Part shown: positions 1 through 6,491 of the stretch, piece by piece
How positions within the stretch are numbered: the stretch's first letter is position 1
How the letters are laid out: every line of letters starts with the position of its first letter
IMG/VR virus record: IMGVR_UViG_2660238215_000013
Coordinates: 1-6,491 of that record
Length of the DNA: 6,491 nt
Reading direction: 5' to 3' (one strand)
Origin: a virus
Taxonomy: Duplodnaviria; Heunggongvirae; Uroviricota; Caudoviricetes
Position numbers and translations under genes: made by a program
The notes under the pieces: model-generated
The model's input: the letters and a program-made list of their open reading frames with translations, nothing else
Database searches by the model: none
Told to the model about the DNA's origin: nothing

Positions 1-300
1 CGGAAGGCCTTCACCATATGCCATGCTGTTTGACTGCCCCGCCAGAACCACAACAAAGTAATACTCCGGGTCTCTGGTGGCGCTGATTACTGTGCCTTCT
101 CCATCCGACGGCTTCACCACAACAGGTGTGCTCACATCACCTTCTGCGACAATCGCCTGAATAAGTGCTGCGCCATCATCCGTATACGAAGAAAACGGCC
201 CGCCGTATGGCTGCCATCCTTCACGAATTTTTTGAGCAAGCGCATCCGCAAGGTCTGACGGCGACGCCGCCCTGACCACGTCATAGTGTTTAAATGCCAT
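1..300 (-). CDS. Partial CDS (5' end in window, continues past coordinate 1): N-terminal ~100 aa of a prophage NanS-p-like protein, DUF1737-type N-terminus followed by the start of an SGNH/sialate O-acetylesterase-like domain
   Basis: Reverse complement of 1-300 is an unbroken frame from ATG (300-298) with GGAGG 4 nt upstream (305-309): MAFKHYDVVRAASPSDLADALAQKIREGWQPYGGPFSSYTDDGAALIQAIVAEGDVSTPVVVKPSDGEGTVISATRDPEYYFVVVLAGQSNSMAYGEGLP... The GQSN block is typical of SGNH-type esterases. Position directly downstream of the prophage tRNA trio matches the gene found after stxAB/tRNAs in lambdoid Stx-type phages. Absent from the ORF track because it is truncated by the window edge. Confidence 0.7.
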   Translation of the reverse strand, partial: MAFKHYDVVRAASPSDLADALAQKIREGWQPYGGPFSSYTDDGAALIQAIVAEGDVSTPVVVKPSDGEGTVISATRDPEYYFVVVLAGQSNSMAYGEGLP

Positions 301-400
301 GAATCCTCCCGGCCGGGATAATGTTGTGAGTCAGATAAGGGGCGGGCTGAAGTCCGGAAGTTACAGGACAATGACAGAAGGAAGACTACAGCCCGCAATA

Positions 401-429
401 CGAAAAAGGCCGCGCAGTTGCGCAGCCTT
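401..429 (-). terminator. Putative intrinsic terminator, minus orientation: near-perfect 11-bp GC-rich hairpin (406-429, one mismatch) followed on the minus strand by a U5 tract
   Basis: aaggccgcgcagttgcgcagcctt folds back on itself (10 of 11 pairs), then TTTTT on the minus strand (complement of aaaaa 403-407). Lies about 100 nt upstream of the esterase gene start. Confidence 0.35.
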
Positions 430-487
430 ATAAACCCTGGTTAAAATCCACACGATAAAAATGACAATGCAAGTATCTCATGCTGTT

Positions 488-512
488 GCCCGAACCTACT
501 CGGGCGTTTTTT
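488..512 (+). terminator. Putative intrinsic terminator, plus orientation: gcccga-acctac-tcgggc hairpin followed by T6
   Basis: 6-bp perfect stem 488-493/500-505, 6-nt loop, tttttt at 507-512. It is oriented against all flanking genes, so it would stop antisense transcription entering the tRNA/late region. Confidence 0.4.
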
Positions 513-830
513 GCATGTAAAAATGCTCCTGCGATGAGGAGCCTGGATATATGCCTAATCTCTGTATACAGCATGATGCCGGGTGCCTCCCGGTGAATTC
601 TGCAATGACCAGACAGAATCCGCAACTTGCCTATACAATACGCAACCAAACATCTGTCATTATGCCCCGCCGCCCAGGGGGATTCATCATGCAGGATTTT
701 TTTAACAAACGCTCAGCATGTCAGGCAACAGTCAACTACCTGAATTGTGAGGCATTTAACATTTCACTGTCCGGTATCTTTCCTGTAATAAAAAGCCCGC
801 AAAAGAGAGTCAGGGCAGATAAGTGTGGTG

Positions 831-907
831 TGGCGCGTTGTACTGGATTCGAACCAGTGACCGATTGCTTAGAAGGCAATTGCTCTGTCCGGCTGAGCTA
901 ACAACGC
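831..907 (-). tRNA. argO: tRNA-Arg, anticodon TCT (reads AGA); phage-borne rare-codon tRNA
   Basis: Minus-strand 77 nt: GCGTTGT-TA-GCTC-AGCCGGACA-GAGC-A-ATTGC-CTTCTAA-GCAAT-CGGTC-ACTGG-TTCGAAT-CCAGT-ACAACGC-G-CCA. Full cloverleaf with 7-bp acceptor stem, TTCGAAT T-loop and encoded CCA. Symbol follows the ileZ-argN-argO order of lambdoid/Stx phages, recalled not searched. Confidence 0.85.
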
Positions 908-920
908 ATGATGCTGATAA

Positions 921-997
921 TGGACCGCCATCGGGGACTTGAACCCCGCACAGCCAGCTTCGAAGGCTGGCGCTCTGTCCCGATGAGCTAATGGCGG
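921..997 (-). tRNA. argN: tRNA-Arg, anticodon TCG as read from the anticodon loop CTTCGAA
   Basis: Minus-strand 77 nt: CCGCCAT-TA-GCTC-ATCGGGACA-GAGC-G-CCAGC-CTTCGAA-GCTGG-CTGTG-CGGGG-TTCAAGT-CCCCG-ATGGCGG-T-CCA. Acceptor, anticodon and T stems are all complementary. Middle member of the trio; anticodon is as read here, symbol by position. Confidence 0.8.
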
Positions 998-1006
998 TAT
1001 GTGATA

Positions 1007-1082
1007 TGGTGGCCCTTGCTGGATTTGAACCAGCGACCTGGCGATTATGAGTCGCTCGCTCTCACCACTGAGCTAAAGGGCC
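1007..1082 (-). tRNA. ileZ: tRNA-Ile2 type (anticodon CAT, presumably lysidine-modified to read AUA); an elongator tRNA-Met cannot be fully excluded from sequence alone
   Basis: Minus-strand 76 nt: GGCCCTTTAGCTCAGTGGTGAGAGCGAGCGACTCATAATCGCCAGGTCGCTGGTTCAAATCCAGCAAGGGCCACCA. Nearly identical in layout to E. coli tRNA-Ile2 (ileX) as I recall it; anticodon loop CTCATAA. Confidence 0.85.
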
Positions 1083-1119
1083 GGGAGCAGAATAATAACG
1101 GTCCGTAATTAATTCCGCA

Positions 1120-1145
1120 ATAAAAAACCCGCTCAATGGCGGGTT
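1120..1145 (-). terminator. tR'-like intrinsic terminator of the late leader transcript (minus orientation)
   Basis: Minus strand AACCCGC-CATTGA-GCGGGTT followed by TTTTTTATT: 7-bp stem 1126-1132/1139-1145, U-tract from 1120-1125. Sits between the Q-like gene and the tRNAs, as tR' does in lambdoid phages. Confidence 0.6.
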
Positions 1146-1203
1146 CTGGTAAAGTTCATGCGTTTGGTTCGCCTCGCGATACAGCTTTGCGAAGCTTACC
1201 GGA

Positions 1204-1232
1204 ATTGAAGCAGTTTGTGGCTCATTTTGCAA
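1204..1232 (-). promoter_or_regulatory. Candidate late promoter PR' with presumed qut region: -35 TTGCAA (1227-1232), 17-bp spacer, -10 TTCAAT (1204-1209)
   Basis: Hexamers read directly on the minus strand, starting 8 nt after the Q-like stop codon (1240-1242). The predicted short transcript would end at the 1120-1145 terminator. Hexamer choice is by eye. Confidence 0.4.
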
Positions 1233-1239
1233 TGATTTT

Positions 1240-1776
1240 TTAAGCATAATCGAACGCTTCTCTCATAGGTGAATACAAAATGAACTCAGCAATACTCAAC
1301 CACTGATCAACACGGCGTCGGCATGTAATCAACGCCCACTCTGGGTACTGTTCGTTTAGTAGCTCGGCCATCCTTCTCTTACTCATCCCTCGTCCCACAT
1401 AACGCTGACTCAGGACATTAAGCAGCCCGGGATGATCCGCCAGTACTTCGCCAATAACCCTGTCGATTATTAATGCCTCTGCATCAGTACAATGCGCCAG
1501 CCAGCTCTTTTGCTTACCGTTAATCATATCCCGCAAAAAAGCCTCAAGTTCAGACTTGTTCAGACCTGCTTTTTTCATCCTCCGGAGCGCCTCGTTAATT
1601 GCCGTTTTTGTCAGCTTTTTAGAGGCCAACAACTGGTTGAACATATTCCCCGTCTTACCGCCGCCAATATACGACCAGCGCCCCCACATGCGCAGTTTTC
1701 CCTGAATCCAGACACTTTCCAGCGTGGTGAGACGAAGGTGCTCTCCGCTTTTTCCTGTGTTCGTTGGGTAAATCAT
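1240..1776 (-). CDS. Putative late-gene antiterminator Q (178 aa). Function assigned mainly by synteny (last gene before PR'/tR'/tRNAs, after ybcO-like gene), not by a verified family match
   Basis: ORF-track frame 1240..1896 trimmed to the ATG at 1776, which overlaps the upstream stop as ATGA (ATG 1776-1774, TGA 1775-1773). Product MIYPTNTGKSGEHLRLTTLESVWIQGKLRMWGRW...SPMREAFDYA. The 40 codons upstream of this ATG overlap the ybcO-like gene in another frame. Confidence 0.6.
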   Translation of the reverse strand: MIYPTNTGKSGEHLRLTTLESVWIQGKLRMWGRWSYIGGGKTGNMFNQLLASKKLTKTAINEALRRMKKAGLNKSELEAFLRDMINGKQKSWLAHCTDAEALIIDRVIGEVLADHPGLLNVLSQRYVGRGMSKRRMAELLNEQYPEWALITCRRRVDQWLSIAEFILYSPMREAFDYA

Positions 1777-2063
1777 AAATAACCGTCCTTTCTCCAGATC
1801 TCTTGTGTGCGAAAAACACCTTCTGCATGCATCAGGCGCAATTCTTCTTTGGTGTAATCGCTGGTTTTTACTCTCCCGTCGATTAAATCGTGGCATGAGT
1901 TACAGGCAATCGCCGCCTGCATATCGTGTGGTTTTGTCGCTGTTCCGCACGTCCCCGCCAGCCTGTAATGCGCCAGCACAGAAGTTTCGGGATTGTGATT
2001 GCAGTAGCCAGGAATTCTGACTGTGCACATCTGCCCCCGCGCCGCTTTACGTAAATCCACCAT
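1773..2063 (-). CDS. ybcO: YbcO-like DUF1364 protein (96 aa), a Cys/His-rich nin-region protein
   Basis: MVDLRKAARGQMCTVRIPGYCNHNPETSVLAHYRLAGTCGTATKPHDMQAAIACNSCHDLIDGR... matches the remembered DLP12 YbcO pattern (MADLRKAARG..C.VRIPG.CN.NPETSVLAH.RL.G.CGT.TKP.D..A.IAC..CHD.ID.R). Start ATG 2063-2061 overlaps the upstream stop as TAATG. Confidence 0.85.
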   Translation of the reverse strand: MVDLRKAARGQMCTVRIPGYCNHNPETSVLAHYRLAGTCGTATKPHDMQAAIACNSCHDLIDGRVKTSDYTKEELRLMHAEGVFRTQEIWRKDGYL

Positions 2064-2662
2064 TACGCAAACTCCAGTAACTGCGCGGCCACATTTTCGA
2101 CTTCCTCCGGAGAGGAAAATTTACGGAACAGGATCCAGTTCCACAGCACATTCAGTACAGATTTATAAACCTGCTGAAACTCGGTTTCGTCCATGTTCGC
2201 AAATGCGATAGATTTTGCCCTGCGCCCACGACTACCGTCCGGATAAAAATGTTCGGTGTAAAATCCGGCCTGAATGGTTACCCATTCGCGAAAAGCGTCA
2301 AAGGACTTGAGTAAGGCCGTATCCCGGGTTCTGCAAGTCGTAACGGTGTTAAGGTATTGCTCTGCGGCATCACTCAGGGCTGGCGTATGTTCCCGACCTA
2401 CTGATTCGCACAGGAAATCAACGAAACCGGACACCAGTTCTCGTTCGCGAGGCGTGATCGCCCCACCGTTCGGAGTCCAGTAATCGAATCCCAGTTGCAG
2501 GAGTTTGAAAAAACGCTTGTGGAACGCGTAGTTACGCACTCGCTTAAAGTCCGCGTGTATCCACTCACCTATTTTGATTTGATGCAAAAAATCGCAACTC
2601 TCCGGCGTCGCCGGGAGAAGTAATCCGGAAGAGGTTTGTTTGACCAGTTGTATATGCGCCAT
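2063..2662 (-). CDS. Conserved lambdoid nin-region protein, probably DUF1367 family (199 aa)
   Basis: ORF-track frame 2063..2674 begins at a TTG; the first ATG (2662-2660) has GGAG 6 nt upstream. Product MAHIQLVKQTSSGLLLPATPESCDFLHQIKIGEWIHADFKRVRNYAFHKRFFKLLQLGFDYWTP... Family assignment is from memory of prophage nin-region proteins and is unverified. Confidence 0.65.
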   Translation of the reverse strand: MAHIQLVKQTSSGLLLPATPESCDFLHQIKIGEWIHADFKRVRNYAFHKRFFKLLQLGFDYWTPNGGAITPRERELVSGFVDFLCESVGREHTPALSDAAEQYLNTVTTCRTRDTALLKSFDAFREWVTIQAGFYTEHFYPDGSRGRRAKSIAFANMDETEFQQVYKSVLNVLWNWILFRKFSSPEEVENVAAQLLEFA

Positions 2663-2721
2663 TGCTGTCTCCAATGGCGCTGTAGGTTGCCAGTTGTTCA
2701 GGCTGGCTTACGAATTATAAC

Positions 2722-2895
2722 TCATTCCCGAATCACCTTGAAACCGAGCCTTTCAAGATATTCAATGAATGCCTCGATAGATAAAATTACATGATTATCA
2801 GGGATTAACGTTGCGTAGATAACTTCCCCATTCTCAACGCGCACAGCATAGAGGCCATTTTCACTAAAAATTTCACGCAATTCTTCGATTTTCAT
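2722..2895 (-). CDS. Small acidic hypothetical protein (57 aa), not in the ORF track
   Basis: Hand translation: MKIEELREIFSENGLYAVRVENGEVIYATLIPDNHVILSIEAFIEYLERLGFKVIRE, stop TGA 2724-2722. SD-like GGAAGGA 6 nt upstream of the ATG. Lies in the AT-rich patch between the A-B-C terminator and the DUF1367-like gene. Confidence 0.5.
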   Translation of the reverse strand: MKIEELREIFSENGLYAVRVENGEVIYATLIPDNHVILSIEAFIEYLERLGFKVIRE

Positions 2896-2976
2896 CAACA
2901 GAATCCTTCCAGATAAATAGCACTCCCCTGCTCGGGGTCCATCCCTCTTCTCCCTGCGCGCTACTTAAGTGCATCG

Positions 2977-3004
2977 ATTCTAGTCAGGCATACCCGCTTA
3001 TCAA
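2977..3004 (-). promoter_or_regulatory. Candidate sigma70 promoter: -35 TTGATA (2999-3004), 16-bp spacer, -10 TAGAAT (2977-2982)
   Basis: Hexamers read on the minus strand about 80 nt upstream of the 57-aa ORF and just downstream of the A-B-C terminator. Could give lysogen expression of the 57-aa ORF independent of phage antitermination. Confidence 0.35.
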
Positions 3005-3057
3005 CAAACGAAGGTCGGTTTAGTGGAGGAATCGGCTAAAACTTGATCTGTTAAAGT

Positions 3058-3083
3058 AAAAAACCCGCCGAAGCGGGTTTTTT
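3058..3083 (-). terminator. Strong bidirectional intrinsic terminator closing the A-B-C operon
   Basis: aaaaaacccgccgaagcgggtttttt: 6-bp GC stem (3063-3068/3073-3078), loop UUCG on the minus-strand RNA, flanked by A6 and T6. Starts 6 nt after the stop of gene C (3089-3091). Confidence 0.75.
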
Positions 3084-3088
3084 GTATA

Positions 3089-3481
3089 TTACATACTCTC
3101 AATGTCATTTTTTAGTGAGTGCTTGTGTAACTCCATGGAGTAATCAACATCACGAAGAGTTTTTTCAATCTGCTTGCTTCTCAGGGTGGCAAGCGCATTA
3201 TCAATTGACACTTTTTCTTCATCTGAAGCATCAGCTCTCATTTTCGTAAGAGTCTTACGAGCCCTTGCCACATCCACCTTGAAACGTACGTCCTCTATGC
3301 TAGGTACGTTAACAAACGTAAGAAGTAGCAAAAAGAAGTGAGCAATAACAACAGCAACCCCAGGGAGAAATGCGTTGATATCAGCAGGTAACCCAATATA
3401 TGCGCTAGCCTTGACCAATAGGTAATTTGCCACCGGTGTGCACCACGCTTGGCTTGCAACATACTTAGATTGTTGAATCAT
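3089..3481 (-). CDS. Gene C of the candidate cassette: 130-aa predicted membrane protein, one clear TM segment (FLPGVAVVIAHFFLLLLTFVNV) and a charged, probably helical C-terminal tail. No family recognised
   Basis: ORF track 3089..3481. ATG 3481-3479 overlaps the stop of gene B as ATGA, with GAGG 6 nt upstream. Low GC like A and B. Confidence 0.7.
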   Translation of the reverse strand: MIQQSKYVASQAWCTPVANYLLVKASAYIGLPADINAFLPGVAVVIAHFFLLLLTFVNVPSIEDVRFKVDVARARKTLTKMRADASDEEKVSIDNALATLRSKQIEKTLRDVDYSMELHKHSLKNDIESM

Positions 3482-3717
3482 GAAGTGCCTCGCGTTAAAT
3501 CACGCTGAACCTCACTCAACGTGGACGCGAGCTCACGTGCATCCTTTGCATCCAACTGAACTTCGCAATAATGCCTAACTCCACATCGATCTATATAAGT
3601 AAATTTGAGTGTCTTACTTGGTTTAAGCCAAACCAAAAAATGATATACAGCAAAACGAGCCAACATAAAGGCGGCAACAAAAACCGTAATCATCAACATG
3701 ACACTTAAATAAGGCAT
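3478..3717 (-). CDS. Gene B of the candidate cassette: 79-aa small membrane protein, N-terminal TM helix (residues ~3-30) then a ~50-aa soluble tail with a Cys pair (DRCGVRHYC). No family recognised
   Basis: ORF track 3478..3717. Start is 8 nt after the stop of gene A (TAG 3728-3726) with AGGT 6 nt upstream. Stop overlaps the start of C. Confidence 0.7.
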   Translation of the reverse strand: MPYLSVMLMITVFVAAFMLARFAVYHFLVWLKPSKTLKFTYIDRCGVRHYCEVQLDAKDARELASTLSEVQRDLTRGTS

Positions 3718-3725
3718 ATTATTAC

Positions 3726-4595
3726 CTATACGATTCGACGTTCAGCTGCGGCGCGATGCCGTACAACCTGCGTGATAATGTATGCTGGATTCCCCAATAC
3801 ACCATTAGTTTCTTTGACTCTTTTTGTCACATTCACTACAAAAAGATCATCTTTACTGAATGACGCTTCGTTTAAATTTACTCGCTCAAGAAAACCAGCA
3901 TCCGCCATCTTAACCTTTACATCCTCGCCGTCTGGCAATACCATCCTCCAATCTGTATCGGAAGTAAAGCTCAGCTTAGAAAACTTGACGTTTAAGGTCA
4001 ATGAGTCTTCATGTGTATGTTGTACAACCGTATTATTCACTTTTTTAAAAGAAACAGATTGCTCTTGCGAAATAGAGACAATCTCCTCCCCACTTGAGTT
4101 TTTTACTCTAAACGACGAGTTTTTTTCAGTTTGCAGAGGAGTGTGTACCAATTTACTCATTTCATTGCGGATCGTAGAGTTTGTAACGAGCTTTTGTACG
4201 TCATTTGAACACTCAAATCGCTCATTATCAACAACAAAAGTCGCTCGGTTATTGGCTTCATCTATAACAACCTCATGTGGCTTTCGCCCTCGCAACCATT
4301 CTACAACCCCAACCAAACTCCCAGCACTTGCGCCGGTGGCAACAGAAAGCCCCAAGAGTTGCAAAGTAGATAAACTACCCAAAACAGAGACAAGAACAGT
4401 AAAAGATCCTTCCTGAATTGCCTTAATACTAACCCTAGTTGTTGCAGTCTCACCGTGGATAATTTTCTCTGCATTATCAATCAAATTACTTAATGAAGAC
4501 AGAGCATCACCAAGCATTTTAGCATCGATCTCATTATTCGCATATGCATCCCCAGCATATGCAATCTCAAGCTCTGTTACCTGTTGGTCGGTCAT
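3726..4595 (-). CDS. Gene A of the candidate cassette: ~289-aa protein with soluble N-terminal ~60 aa, a ~35-residue hydrophobic segment (FTVLVSVLGSLSTLQLLGLSVATGASAGSLVGVV; one long TM or a TM hairpin), and a ~190-aa C-terminal domain. No family recognised
   Basis: ORF track gives 3726..4613. The ATG at 4595-4593 has GGAG 9 nt upstream, whereas the ATG at 4613 has only A/T upstream, so 4595 is preferred (4613 remains possible). 870-nt frame in low-GC DNA, coupled to B and C downstream. Confidence 0.75.
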   Translation of the reverse strand: MTDQQVTELEIAYAGDAYANNEIDAKMLGDALSSLSNLIDNAEKIIHGETATTRVSIKAIQEGSFTVLVSVLGSLSTLQLLGLSVATGASAGSLVGVVEWLRGRKPHEVVIDEANNRATFVVDNERFECSNDVQKLVTNSTIRNEMSKLVHTPLQTEKNSSFRVKNSSGEEIVSISQEQSVSFKKVNNTVVQHTHEDSLTLNVKFSKLSFTSDTDWRMVLPDGEDVKVKMADAGFLERVNLNEASFSKDDLFVVNVTKRVKETNGVLGNPAYIITQVVRHRAAAERRIV

Positions 4596-4714
4596 GAAGT
4601 TCAACTCCACCATAAAAAATATGCAAAATAATTAACAGTATTTTCACTTTATGGCGGGTGCGTTGAGGATGCCTGACACATCAGAGGTGGCGGGGGTTTA
4701 CCCCGCCTGGTCTC

Positions 4715-4870
4715 TTACTCCTCAGGTTCGTAAGCTGTGAAGACAGCGACCTCCGTCTGGCCGGTTCGGATTCGTACCTCGCAGAGGTCTTTCCTCGTTA
4801 CCAGTGCCGTCACTATGACGGTTAAACAGATGACGATCAGGGCGATTAACATCGCCTTTTGCTGCTTCAT
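4715..4870 (-). CDS. hokD: Hok-family type I toxin (51 aa), HokD/RelF-like
   Basis: MKQQKAMLIALIVICLTVIVTALVTRKDLCEVRIRTGQTEVAVFTAYEPEE: single TM plus the conserved Hok C-terminal motif. Matches my recollection of K-12 Qin HokD. AAGGAG 9 nt upstream of the ATG at 4870. The ORF-track entry 4715..4927 is the same frame extended 19 codons upstream. Confidence 0.85.
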   Translation of the reverse strand: MKQQKAMLIALIVICLTVIVTALVTRKDLCEVRIRTGQTEVAVFTAYEPEE

Positions 4871-4991
4871 AGCCTGCTTCTCCTTGCCTTTCGGCGCGTA
4901 AGAGGCTAACCTACATGTGCAAGTCATAGATATGGCCTCAGATTAATGTTAAGCGTCTTGCCGGACGCGTAATGTTAACTGGGGCTTTTCT

Positions 4992-5027
4992 CTATCTGCC
5001 GTTGGTGTTCATGCCCGAGGCAGATAG
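4992..5027. repeat. 9-bp inverted repeat (ctatctgcc ... ggcagatag) with 18-nt spacer in the hokD upstream leader region
   Basis: 4992-5000 is the exact reverse complement of 5019-5027. Could be a structured RNA element of a hok/sok-type leader. Confidence 0.6.
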
Positions 5028-5085
5028 CCTCAAGCACCCGCAGCAATTCTACTTAACTCTCGCTTTACCGCAAACCGTTTTTACC

Positions 5086-5107
5086 CGATATGGGAATTCC
5101 CATATCG
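5086..5107. repeat. Perfect 22-bp palindrome CGATATGGGAATTCCCATATCG centred on GAATTC
   Basis: Reverse complement equals itself. Lies 9 nt downstream of the 34-aa peptide stop and ~215 nt upstream of the hokD start. Candidate dimeric-regulator operator or a 9-bp-stem RNA hairpin in the hok leader. Confidence 0.9.
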
Positions 5108-5115
5108 TAATGAAT

Positions 5116-5220
5116 TCAGTTCCCTAGTCGATCCATCAAAAACACAACCAGGCAGTAAACGCCCACAACAGCAATAACAGCCAGCGCACCTTCCATTGCC
5201 AGTGAAATATCATCCGACAT
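5116..5220 (-). CDS. Small hydrophobic peptide ORF (34 aa), predicted single-TM peptide; not in the ORF track
   Basis: Hand translation: MSDDISLAMEGALAVIAVVGVYCLVVFLMDRLGN, stop TGA 5118-5116. AGGAGGG immediately upstream of the ATG (5220-5218). Confidence 0.45.
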   Translation of the reverse strand: MSDDISLAMEGALAVIAVVGVYCLVVFLMDRLGN

Positions 5221-5255
5221 ATTCCCTCCTTTGGTGTTAATCCCGGCGAACGTTT

Positions 5256-5339
5256 TTACCCCCACCGACAAATAACATATACTAAAAAAGCGATAGCCAT
5301 AGCAACGCCTGTAATTGCAAATGCTTCAGGCCAGTTCAT
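5256..5339 (-). CDS. Small hydrophobic peptide ORF (27 aa), predicted single-TM peptide; not in the ORF track
   Basis: Hand translation: MNWPEAFAITGVAMAIAFLVYVICRWG, stop TAA 5258-5256. ATG 5339-5337 overlaps the stop of the DUF551 gene as ATGA, with AGGAGG 7 nt upstream. Confidence 0.45.
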   Translation of the reverse strand: MNWPEAFAITGVAMAIAFLVYVICRWG

Positions 5340-5920
5340 TGGCGCACCTCCTGCGGCGGTTCTGGTAGCGGCATCCAGTCGGTTACATTGCGGCTCTGTG
5401 TTTCGAAAAATTCATCACCATCACGGACTACATCAAAAAACTCACCGTCTCGATATTGCGCATAAAGAACGAATGCGCCATCACATAAAATAATTACGTG
5501 CTGACAGTCATCCGGCATTCGCTCACTACAGCTTATCCAACCATCCAGAGTTACCGGATAGTTGGTTGACGTTTCCGAGATTTCCCGAAAATTATTGGTT
5601 GACGAACCCTTATTTTCCCGAAAGTTTCCAGCCTGAAGCATGGCGGCGCTGTCTGGCGGGGCAGCATATAGCGGCACGTATATTTCCGGTTCCTTATCAG
5701 CACCGGGTTGCTCTTCCAGTGAGAATGTCTTTCCGGTAAATCGATTCATATAAAGCACGGGCTCTGCTTCCAGCGAAGCCTGAGCAACAAGGGCCAGTGC
5801 TAAATCCAACTCAATTGCCTCGAGAGAATTTTTGAATGCTGTCTGTTTTACTGCAAATTTCATCGCCTTTACATTTTCACTAACATGACTGATTAACTGC
5901 TCTTTTGTAAAAGTGGTCAT
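5336..5920 (-). CDS. Prophage protein with C-terminal DUF551-like domain (194 aa)
   Basis: ORF-track frame 5336..5980 starts at a GTG; the internal ATG at 5920-5918 has AAGGAG 6 nt upstream. C-terminus ...DGWISCSERMPDDCQHVIILCDGAFVLYAQYRDGEFFDV...VTDWMPLPEPP fits the DUF551 pattern as I remember it. Confidence 0.7.
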   Translation of the reverse strand: MTTFTKEQLISHVSENVKAMKFAVKQTAFKNSLEAIELDLALALVAQASLEAEPVLYMNRFTGKTFSLEEQPGADKEPEIYVPLYAAPPDSAAMLQAGNFRENKGSSTNNFREISETSTNYPVTLDGWISCSERMPDDCQHVIILCDGAFVLYAQYRDGEFFDVVRDGDEFFETQSRNVTDWMPLPEPPQEVRQ

Positions 5921-5976
5921 CTCATTCTCCTTTGATGCGAATGCCAGCGACAATTGAAGCCTGATAGCTAATTCAC

Positions 5977-6372
5977 TCACAGTACCGCCTCCTGAAAATT
6001 GCCCTGATAGAACGCCAGTACACGCAGCATAACTTCACTCTTCCGGCACTCGCCACAGATTATGTTCTGTTGTCTGTCGTAGCGGCGTATTTCTCCGTCT
6101 GGTAACTTTCGAATCAATGTCTGGTCGGTTGTTTTCTCCGCTGCCTTACGCCATACGCGATACACCTGTTCTGATGTAAAAACACCGTATTTACCGGGCA
6201 TGTATAAATCGCCACAAGCCAGTACATCCACAAGGCAACGTCTGACTGAATGCCAGCCTGCTCCCGTCGCTCTCTCCAGTTGTGATATCGTCATGCGTTC
6301 ATTTTTGCGTACCAGCCCGATAATTCGGGCCTTCAGTTCTTCACGCTGTTCGTGTGTAAAAGGTTTCGCCAT
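5977..6372 (-). CDS. Hypothetical prophage early-region protein (131 aa) with a probable helix-turn-helix segment (RMTISQLERATGAGWHSVRRCLVDV)
   Basis: ORF-track frame 5977..6387 trimmed to the ATG at 6372-6370, which has GGAGG 5 nt upstream. The stop overlaps the GTG of the next frame (GTGA). Confidence 0.65.
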   Translation of the reverse strand: MAKPFTHEQREELKARIIGLVRKNERMTISQLERATGAGWHSVRRCLVDVLACGDLYMPGKYGVFTSEQVYRVWRKAAEKTTDQTLIRKLPDGEIRRYDRQQNIICGECRKSEVMLRVLAFYQGNFQEAVL

Positions 6373-6387
6373 AAGCGCCTCCGGCAA

Positions 6388-6491
6388 TCACTTTTCCGAC
6401 ACAATACGACCGGATGAATCGACAATCTGCCGAACAATATCCCGGTGCTTGTTCAGCTCCCGCAGCGCGGCGCAGACTCGCTCCCACTTCT
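6388..6491 (-). CDS. Partial CDS, C-terminal 34 codons of a gene that begins beyond the window end
   Basis: Open minus-strand frame from the window edge to TGA 6390-6388: ...KWERVCAALRELNKHRDIVRQIVDSSGRIVSEK. The stop lies within the SD region of the downstream HTH gene (operon-like spacing). Too short to assign a function. Confidence 0.4.
   Translation of the reverse strand, partial: KWERVCAALRELNKHRDIVRQIVDSSGRIVSEK

Follow-up and report, generated by a model that had tools for sequence, protein, structure and literature searches.

A-B-C, a candidate membrane-associated anti-phage cassette related to MichelleMyBell gp29-gp30 in an Escherichia coli lambdoid prophage

Organization of the A-B-C cassette

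The window analysed here is a stretch of 6,491 nucleotides (nt) from the IMG/VR virus record IMGVR_UViG_2660238215_000013 (positions 1 to 6,491), and is a piece of an E. coli lambdoid prophage. Three consecutive genes within it, designated A, B and C, form a cassette that is related to the gp29-gp30 system of the mycobacteriophage MichelleMyBell (MMB) and is considered here as a putative anti-phage system. The genes relevant to the trio all lie on the minus strand, and the features of the cassette are as follows.

3080..4653, no strand assigned: inserted module of 1,574 bp consisting of a 58-nt leader and genes A, B and C, delimited by empty-site alignment and guanine-cytosine (GC) content
4596..4653, minus strand: AT-rich module leader of 58 nt, with a GGTGGAG Shine-Dalgarno sequence 9 nt before the ATG at 4595
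3726..4595, minus strand: gene A, 289 amino acids (aa), assigned to the gp29 / LAPAL / PDC-S42 family; an upstream ATG at 4613 would give 295 aa
3718..3725, minus strand: A-B spacer of 8 nt; the TAG stop of A lies within TAGGTAATAATATG and supplies a Shine-Dalgarno-like AGG for B
3478..3717, minus strand: gene B, 79 aa, supported by a transmembrane (TM) helix, conserved residues and the ratio of nonsynonymous to synonymous substitution (dN/dS); matches phrog_27630 (5.8e-13)
3478..3481, minus strand: ATGA overlap of the B stop and C start, with a Shine-Dalgarno-like GAGG about 8 nt upstream, within B
3089..3481, minus strand: gene C, 130 aa, with two hydrophobic helices and a charged tail; matches phrog_26468 (2.1e-9)
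3058..3083, minus strand: intrinsic terminator hairpin (AAAAAACCCGCTTCGGCGGGTTTTTT) 6 nt past the C stop (-15.7 kcal/mol, z = -4.4)

Alignment with an empty-site prophage of E. coli BCE049 (L050) matched window positions 1426-3079 at 95.0% identity and 4654-5086 at 94.7%, with 4 nt between the two, and the insertion therefore corresponds to window 3080-4653. GC content was 40.7% in the module compared to 49% in each flank. On one side the insertion borders the hokD 3' region and on the other a strong terminator, which now follows C; the terminator belongs to the backbone too, as it follows hokD in the empty site, and the hairpin was also located after C in L002, L003, L005 and L021. The module corresponds to a moron as defined by Hendrix in being discrete between backbone genes, missing in a close relative and deviant in composition. 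A megablast search of a phage collection matched the flanks only and the module was not found. The same slot, from hokD to the DUF1367 gene, held a Doc-family (death-on-curing) toxin and a hypothetical gene in many O157-type prophages, and the interval is therefore a hotspot for exchangeable cargo. Window 2900-4720 was present at 99.9-100% identity in three complete E. coli genomes, O157:H7 strain F3113 among them, and the A-B-C cassette was present in 4 of the 5,426 complete E. coli genomes.

The start of A is most likely at 4595 and not at 4613 because all homologs were 288-292 aa. The ATGA overlap of B and C reported in the initial annotation was confirmed at 3478-3481 on the minus strand, and A and B were tightly coupled too, with the TAG stop of A embedded in a TAGGT Shine-Dalgarno-like sequence. 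The 8-nt A-B spacing and the TAGG motif were seen again in most lineages, and the gaps across lineages ranged from 3 to 11 nt for A-B and from -14 to +6 nt for B-C. The close B-C junction was kept in every lineage while the exact ATGA was not, and the Shine-Dalgarno-like motifs across loci were located in the 3' end of the upstream gene. The sequences of the A-B-C junctions are consistent with translational coupling, and the conserved junction supports the earlier proposal that B and C are co-expressed small membrane proteins.

Expression of A-B-C could originate from a weak leader promoter, from hok read-through or from the early phage operon. The promoter-like match in the leader was weak (GTGAAA-18-CATATT, 8/12), no site passed a consensus promoter scan of the 58-nt leader, and neither the window nor three relatives showed any enrichment over shuffled sequences in consensus scans. 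A recurring GTGACA-16-TATCTT motif in the relatives was picked by eye and passed the scan only in L008. Read-through from hok into A-B-C is possible because the module sits between the hokD 3' region and its terminator, and the insertion of the module may alter the formation of the hok mRNA 3' end.

Properties of the B and C proteins

A single strongly hydrophobic segment was identified in B (Kyte-Doolittle 19-residue maximum of 2.37, centre residues 10-22). The one N-terminal TM helix described previously, at approximately residues 3-21, and the following tail of about 50 aa that holds DRCGVRHYC (C45 and C51) were thus both present. Conserved residues included R21, W30-x-K-P33 and D43-x-x-G46, with a short helix after these. 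No positive charge occurred before the TM segment and a positive cluster occurred after it, and an N-out/C-in topology was therefore predicted. The cysteine pair highlighted previously proved to be lineage-specific rather than functional, with C45 restricted to the lineage of the window and C51 extending no further than the nearest relative of that lineage. A disulfide or metal site was accordingly rejected, as the pair was not conserved and would, under the predicted topology, lie in the reducing cytoplasm.

The strong TM segment of C (maximum of 2.44, centre 42-54) spans approximately residues 37-59 and bears a P-G-x-A-V-x-x-S/A-H motif, and a weaker hydrophobic helix precedes it at approximately residues 8-31. 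The tail of about 70 aa was 44% charged with mixed charge. An AlphaFold2 model of C was all helical and the tail formed long helices at 62-84 and 87-129 with a predicted local distance difference test (pLDDT) score of 70-85. The TM helix and helical charged tail previously ascribed to C were therefore retained, although the protein probably has two membrane helices and not one. Positive charges were found at both ends, which fits an N-in/C-in hairpin. Both B and C are thus predicted inner-membrane proteins with C-terminal tails facing the cytoplasm.

The possibility that B and C are fragments of a disrupted larger gene, which the initial annotation had considered, was contradicted by homology. 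Conservation was full-length among 22 distinct sequences each for B and C, the size of the relatives was near constant (78-84 aa for B and 124-135 aa for C), and pairwise dN/dS over many lineage pairs was 0.06-0.39 for B and 0.035-0.24 for C. Given full-length conservation and dN/dS values well below 1, B and C are real genes and not fragments. The C gene of a Pectobacterium odoriferum contig (L024, 5115-5273) departs from the family after about 37 residues and reaches a stop at 51 aa near the contig end, reflecting a disrupted gene or an assembly break, possibly at an insertion.

Both families were tiny, with 6 clusters at 90% identity in 5.8 billion proteins for B and 12 clusters at 50% identity among 1.84 billion representatives for C. 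Neither protein matched a Pfam, NCBIfam or PADLOC family and each matched only a PHROG of unknown function; C had a sub-threshold match to Pfam DUF1659. Sequence profiles of the PDB gave no meaningful match for A, B or C. The PGAP annotation of an identical genome copy omits B, and exact-protein calls placed B on 171 contigs compared to 524 for A and 511 for C. Gene B is systematically overlooked by annotation.

Conservation and exchange of the cassette across loci

Forty-five loci were assembled from the window, annotated genomes, homolog-encoding contigs and scans of GTDB and IMG/VR, and were searched with iterated hidden Markov models. A-B-C synteny was strict, as every evaluable A homolog of at least 41% identity had B and then C directly 3', and B and C were never seen without A, which they followed in each of about 40 loci. 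The exceptions were L016, which was cut at the contig end, and L024 with the truncated C noted above. Apparent gaps in the automated gene calls of L011 and L012 held an intact B. Among the roles suggested earlier for B and C, that of accessory subunits of a membrane complex with A fits this arrangement best, and more distant A homologs also carried analogous small membrane genes.

The contexts of the cassette were mutually unrelated. It lay in the nin region of lambdoid phages, on the opposite strand within the Q-holin interval, immediately ahead of holin-SLT in Mu-like phages of Gilliamella/Orbaceae, beside P2-like tail genes, and in an Enterobacter chromosomal island that carries a resolvase. 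Mobility among unrelated contexts is typical of defence cassettes. A conserved 117-aa open reading frame (ORF) with no family match was located about 150 nt upstream of A in Enterobacter and Raoultella prophages (L003-L006, 4380-4733); it was absent from the window and L007-L009 and may be an optional fourth gene or neighbouring cargo.

B and C diverged faster than A, with mean pairwise identities in the trio clade of 41% for B and 37% for C compared to 59% for A, and the co-variation of B and C remained after controlling for A (partial r = 0.61). Sliding-window comparison showed that A was 90-99% identical between L013 and L018 while B-C was 48-79% identical, and the reverse was observed between L017 and L018. 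Recombination breakpoints were located at the A/B boundary. These breakpoints together with the B-C co-variation indicate that B-C is an exchangeable sub-module, and B and C are exchanged as a unit relative to A.

Relationship of A to the gp29 family

Gene A matched the PADLOC PDC-S42 model PDLC05015 (1.2e-46, profile positions 4-294 of 302) and also belongs to NCBIfam NF053583 ("LAPAL motif-containing putative phage structural protein") and phrog_3243. No Pfam match was obtained at E of at most 0.1, DUF4747 included. The AlphaFold2 model of A (pLDDT 78) consisted of an N-terminal helix/strand region and beta-rich, OB-like C-terminal domains, with a poorly modelled Gly/Ala-rich hydrophobic stretch at approximately residues 65-100. 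This stretch was considered as a marker of membrane partners and rejected, as the partnered MMB gp29 scored 1.09, the same as a solo Ewingella protein; the score in the Mu-like trios was 1.3-1.4. PDC-S42 is one of 145 untested candidates from "guilt-by-embedding" in known defence systems (10.1101/2024.01.29.577857), and the string PDC-S42 was absent from the supplements of that study. The literature search returned no paper on PDC-S42, the LAPAL motif or the RefSeq accessions.

A tblastn search of the phage collection with A matched only a small Vibrio phage, and the lead to gp29 came from a small Vibrio phage, in which a distant A homolog bore the annotation "MMB_gp29_gp30__gp29". The alignment of the A family with MMB gp29 by hhalign was full length (96.7% probability, E 3.2e-10, 268 columns), and GSF, W..R, PL, WR, DE.FL.RV and HR motifs were common to both. 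MMB gp29 itself hit phrog_3243 (7e-81), NF053583 (181 bits, cut-off 60) and PDC-S42 (1.6e-16). On this sequence evidence A is assigned as a bona fide member of the gp29 family.

In MMB, gp29 (310 aa) and gp30 (67 aa, with two clear TM helices) are encoded by genes that overlap by 41 nt in a moron slot with the lysis genes on one side and the integrase on the other. The system is described as "typical of abortive infection" (Abi), in that adsorption and injection proceed and phage production fails (PMC6426606). A second source describes gp29 as toxic and gp30 as a putative membrane protein (PMC11856565). A 2023 DefenseFinder survey recorded "gp29-gp30", which we take to be the MMB system, in Actinobacteria only (10.1101/2023.03.30.534874). 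The "gp29-gp30 (ppGpp-mediated)" of one paper was set aside as the Phrann pair, an unrelated system and not that of MMB.

The partners of gp29-like proteins varied. Two small membrane proteins were present in Enterobacterales and Orbaceae, a single membrane-protein partner was present in MMB and the Vibrio plasmid pAQU2, and forms with no partner occurred only in the distant literal-LAPAL subclade (Halomonadaceae, Ewingella, Burkholderia and Caballeronia). A Vibrio phage, a Pseudomonas megaplasmid and a Shewanella IncC plasmid each carried a distant A homolog (about 25% identity) accompanied by two overlapping small genes of like architectures. In the B-like product a TM helix is followed by a beta-hairpin, which carries a D-G turn, and then by a helix, and the C-like product has two hydrophobic segments and a charged tail. 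Comparison of B with distant B and C with distant C by hhalign gave weak support, with P of about 1e-4, compared to 0.05-0.34 in cross-controls.

The tailless Vibrio phage 10N.286.45.F8_PE001 (L045; Vinavirales, 14.4 kb), which belongs to the tectivirus class and carries an integrase, encodes a gp29-like gene and two small membrane genes beside that integrase. Its presence there implies that the cassette crosses realms from Duplodnaviria to Varidnaviria.

Proposed function and alternative explanations

We consider it probable, at about 60%, that A-B-C is a moron-type prophage cassette, expressed as a unit, that encodes a membrane-associated Abi anti-phage system related to MMB gp29-gp30. Gene A would provide the gp29-like component and is the prime candidate for the effector by analogy with the reported toxicity of gp29. 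B, with one TM helix and a small beta-hairpin/helix domain, and C, with a membrane helical hairpin and long helical tail, would together fill the role of gp30 by docking A at the membrane, and may hold A in check or relay its activity. The complex would be triggered when an unrelated phage infects the cell, and would then damage or depolarise the inner membrane, such that injection proceeds and no progeny are made. The defence function in Proteobacteria, the physical interaction of A, B and C, the identity of the effector and the membrane-damage mechanism are inferred only.

Several observations weigh against this interpretation. A is only about 21% identical to gp29 and its structural matches were generic OB folds only, while the NCBIfam label for its family is that of a "putative phage structural protein". 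The B and C families had no detectable similarity to gp30 (hhalign P of 0.26 and 0.43), and the PHROG of gp30 (phrog_12868) differs from those of B and C (phrog_27630 and phrog_26468); because of this lack of similarity the partner role of B and C is an analogy. One strain has A split by a frameshift with B and C intact, and consensus scans revealed no convincing promoter for expression in the lysogen. The cassette also adjoins lysis genes in several phages, that of MMB included, which makes a lysis-related role possible.

The broader proposal that B-C is an exchangeable two-protein membrane module is more tentative and in our view rather doubtful. It holds that, in Proteobacteria, the addition of B-C would convert a protein of the gp29 type into an Abi device of three components that is triggered at the membrane, with swaps of the module independently of A retuning phage sensing or evading counter-defence, and that gp29/LAPAL/PDC-S42 would be a pan-bacterial sensor-effector core that recruits non-homologous small membrane partners in different phyla.

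Superinfection exclusion, in which A, B and C in the inner membrane would block injection of an incoming genome without killing the cell, is an unlikely alternative to the Abi interpretation. Small inner-membrane proteins from a prophage moron are the usual profile of such systems and in relatives the neighbouring slot is occupied by other genes that benefit the lysogen. The homologous MMB system is, however, reported to permit adsorption and DNA injection (PMC6426606), and the reported toxicity of the A homolog (PMC11856565) suits Abi better than a passive block. Known exclusion proteins also act alone or paired and have no 289-aa, largely soluble OB-like partner. P22 SieA, T4 Imm/Sp and HK97 gp15 are likewise small inner-membrane proteins that guard against other phages, although they block DNA entry and have no gp29-like partner and no sequence similarity to the genes described here.

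A slightly less likely explanation is that the cassette serves the phage's own lytic cycle at the membrane, through lysis timing or holin triggering, and not defence. Such a role would agree with the position of the cassette, which directly precedes holin-SLT in Mu-like phages, separates Q from the holin in one lambdoid group and closely follows lysA-holin-gp28 in MMB, and the two-helix N-in/C-in layout of C recalls class II holins. Regions beside lysis genes are, however, well-known moron hotspots, and the window copy is in the nin region, distant from the lysis genes. The cassette was found in a chromosomal island too, and diverged forms of it reside on plasmids that lack a lysis cassette. 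Closely related prophages lack it entirely, and its rarity among complete E. coli genomes (4/5,426) means that it is dispensable for phage growth. The holin/antiholin pair once envisaged for B and C themselves, prompted by two small overlapping membrane-protein genes, is far less probable still. No holin family of Pfam was matched and no endolysin or spanin is adjacent, and the same prophages carry separate canonical holin-endolysin cassettes. B and C are mutually unrelated whereas antiholins are usually near-identical to the holin, and the pair is strictly tied to A even outside phages. Adjacent or overlapping small membrane-protein genes are the feature shared with holin-antiholin pairs, and A-B-C differs from these in not forming part of a lysis cassette.

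An explanation that we regard as improbable, somewhat more so than a lytic role for the cassette as a whole, is a selfish addiction module of the toxin-antitoxin type in which A is the toxin and B and C are membrane neutralisers, with stabilisation of the prophage or plasmid as the sole role. The toxin/neutraliser relationship suggested initially found partial support in the homolog gp29, reported as toxic with gp30 as its membrane partner (PMC11856565), and because gp29 is the homolog of A the toxin, if any, is likelier to be A than B or C. The module adjoins hok/sok, the Doc toxin-antitoxin pair occupies the same slot in relatives, and the cassette is present on large plasmids. Against this, three-component membrane antitoxins are not a known toxin-antitoxin class and the MMB homolog has a demonstrated anti-phage phenotype; many toxin-antitoxin modules are Abi defences, and this explanation overlaps that of an Abi system rather than excluding it. 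A role of A as a virion structural protein with B and C as assembly factors has the product name of NF053583 in its favour and is as improbable as the holin/antiholin pair. The cassette lies among early/nin or moron genes rather than in structural modules, has been found on plasmids and chromosomal islands and is missing from near-identical prophages, and its MMB homolog is a prophage-expressed defence gene. The NCBI product name for the gp29/A family is probably wrong, and the holin/antiholin and virion structural explanations are essentially excluded by context and family tests.

The Abi interpretation is best compared with the MMB gp29-gp30 system itself (DefenseFinder MMB_gp29_gp30; Dedrick et al. 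2017). Both include a gp29-family gene, A being a full-length homolog of gp29, with a small coupled membrane-protein gene directly downstream, and both are located in a prophage moron slot, with abortive infection reported for MMB. The window cassette differs in having two partners instead of a single gp30, a bare two-TM hairpin, in having no gp30 homolog, and in its gamma-proteobacterial host. A matches the PADLOC PDC-S42 model over its full length, although that system is defined as a single gene whereas the window form is an obligate three-gene prophage cassette that is not embedded in BREX, DISARM or restriction-modification loci. The model was matched best by "LAPAL" proteins that have no partner, from Halomonadaceae and Ewingella (e-90 to e-94). 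A working analogy can also be drawn with lambda RexA/RexB, actinophage Sbash gp30/gp31 and CarolAnn gp44/gp43, prophage-expressed systems that combine a soluble sensor of about 280-370 aa with small polytopic membrane protein(s) and cause abortive infection via loss of membrane potential. There is no sequence relationship to these systems and A has no DUF4747, and the RexB-type partner is one protein with four TM helices, whereas B has one hydrophobic segment and C two.

Neighbouring features of the window

Downstream of the trio are genes for a DUF1367 protein, YbcO and a DUF1133/Q-type antiterminator, and upstream are hokD/sok, a DUF551 protein and a DUF977 protein. The hokD gene and other features observed in the window are listed below.

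4715..4870, minus strand: hokD toxin gene, supported by Pfam HOK_GEF (2.9e-23), Rfam sok (108 bits), PGAP annotation and the empty site
4715-5039, minus strand: intact hokD/sok type I toxin-antitoxin locus
5116-5271, minus strand: 51-aa ORF with a hydrophobic C-terminal half, annotated as 34 aa by PGAP
2722-2898, minus strand: 58-aa ORF matching phrog_340 (1.4e-18, unknown function), annotated by PGAP as a partial pseudogene
831-1082, minus strand: three prophage tRNA genes, Arg(tct), Arg(tcg) and a CAT-anticodon tRNA called as Met
513-721, minus strand: small RNA (sRNA) STnc100 (Rfam, 170 bits, above the gathering score)
453-512, plus strand: AgvB anti-GcvB sponge sRNA (Rfam, 59.9 bits, above the gathering score)

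The tRNA genes are located downstream of the Q-like antiterminator and the CAT-anticodon tRNA may be of the Ile2/ileZ type, as in Stx-like phages. AgvB and STnc100 are back to back just 3' of the tRNA cluster, like in prophages of enterohaemorrhagic E. coli.

Significance of the cassette

The MMB gp29-gp30 pair is a validated defence system that has hitherto been considered specific to Actinobacteria, and a homologous cassette of other architecture has now been located in E. coli O157-type prophages and in elements of Enterobacterales, Orbaceae, Vibrio, Pseudomonas and Shewanella. Three catalogue entries, DefenseFinder MMB_gp29_gp30, PADLOC PDC-S42 and NCBIfam NF053583, are joined as one family, and the single-gene definition in PADLOC misses two obligate partners in the trio clade. 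By analogy with the MMB system, A-B-C would represent a three-gene proteobacterial form of a known gp29-type defence family, and E. coli offers a genetically tractable host for working out the function of that family.

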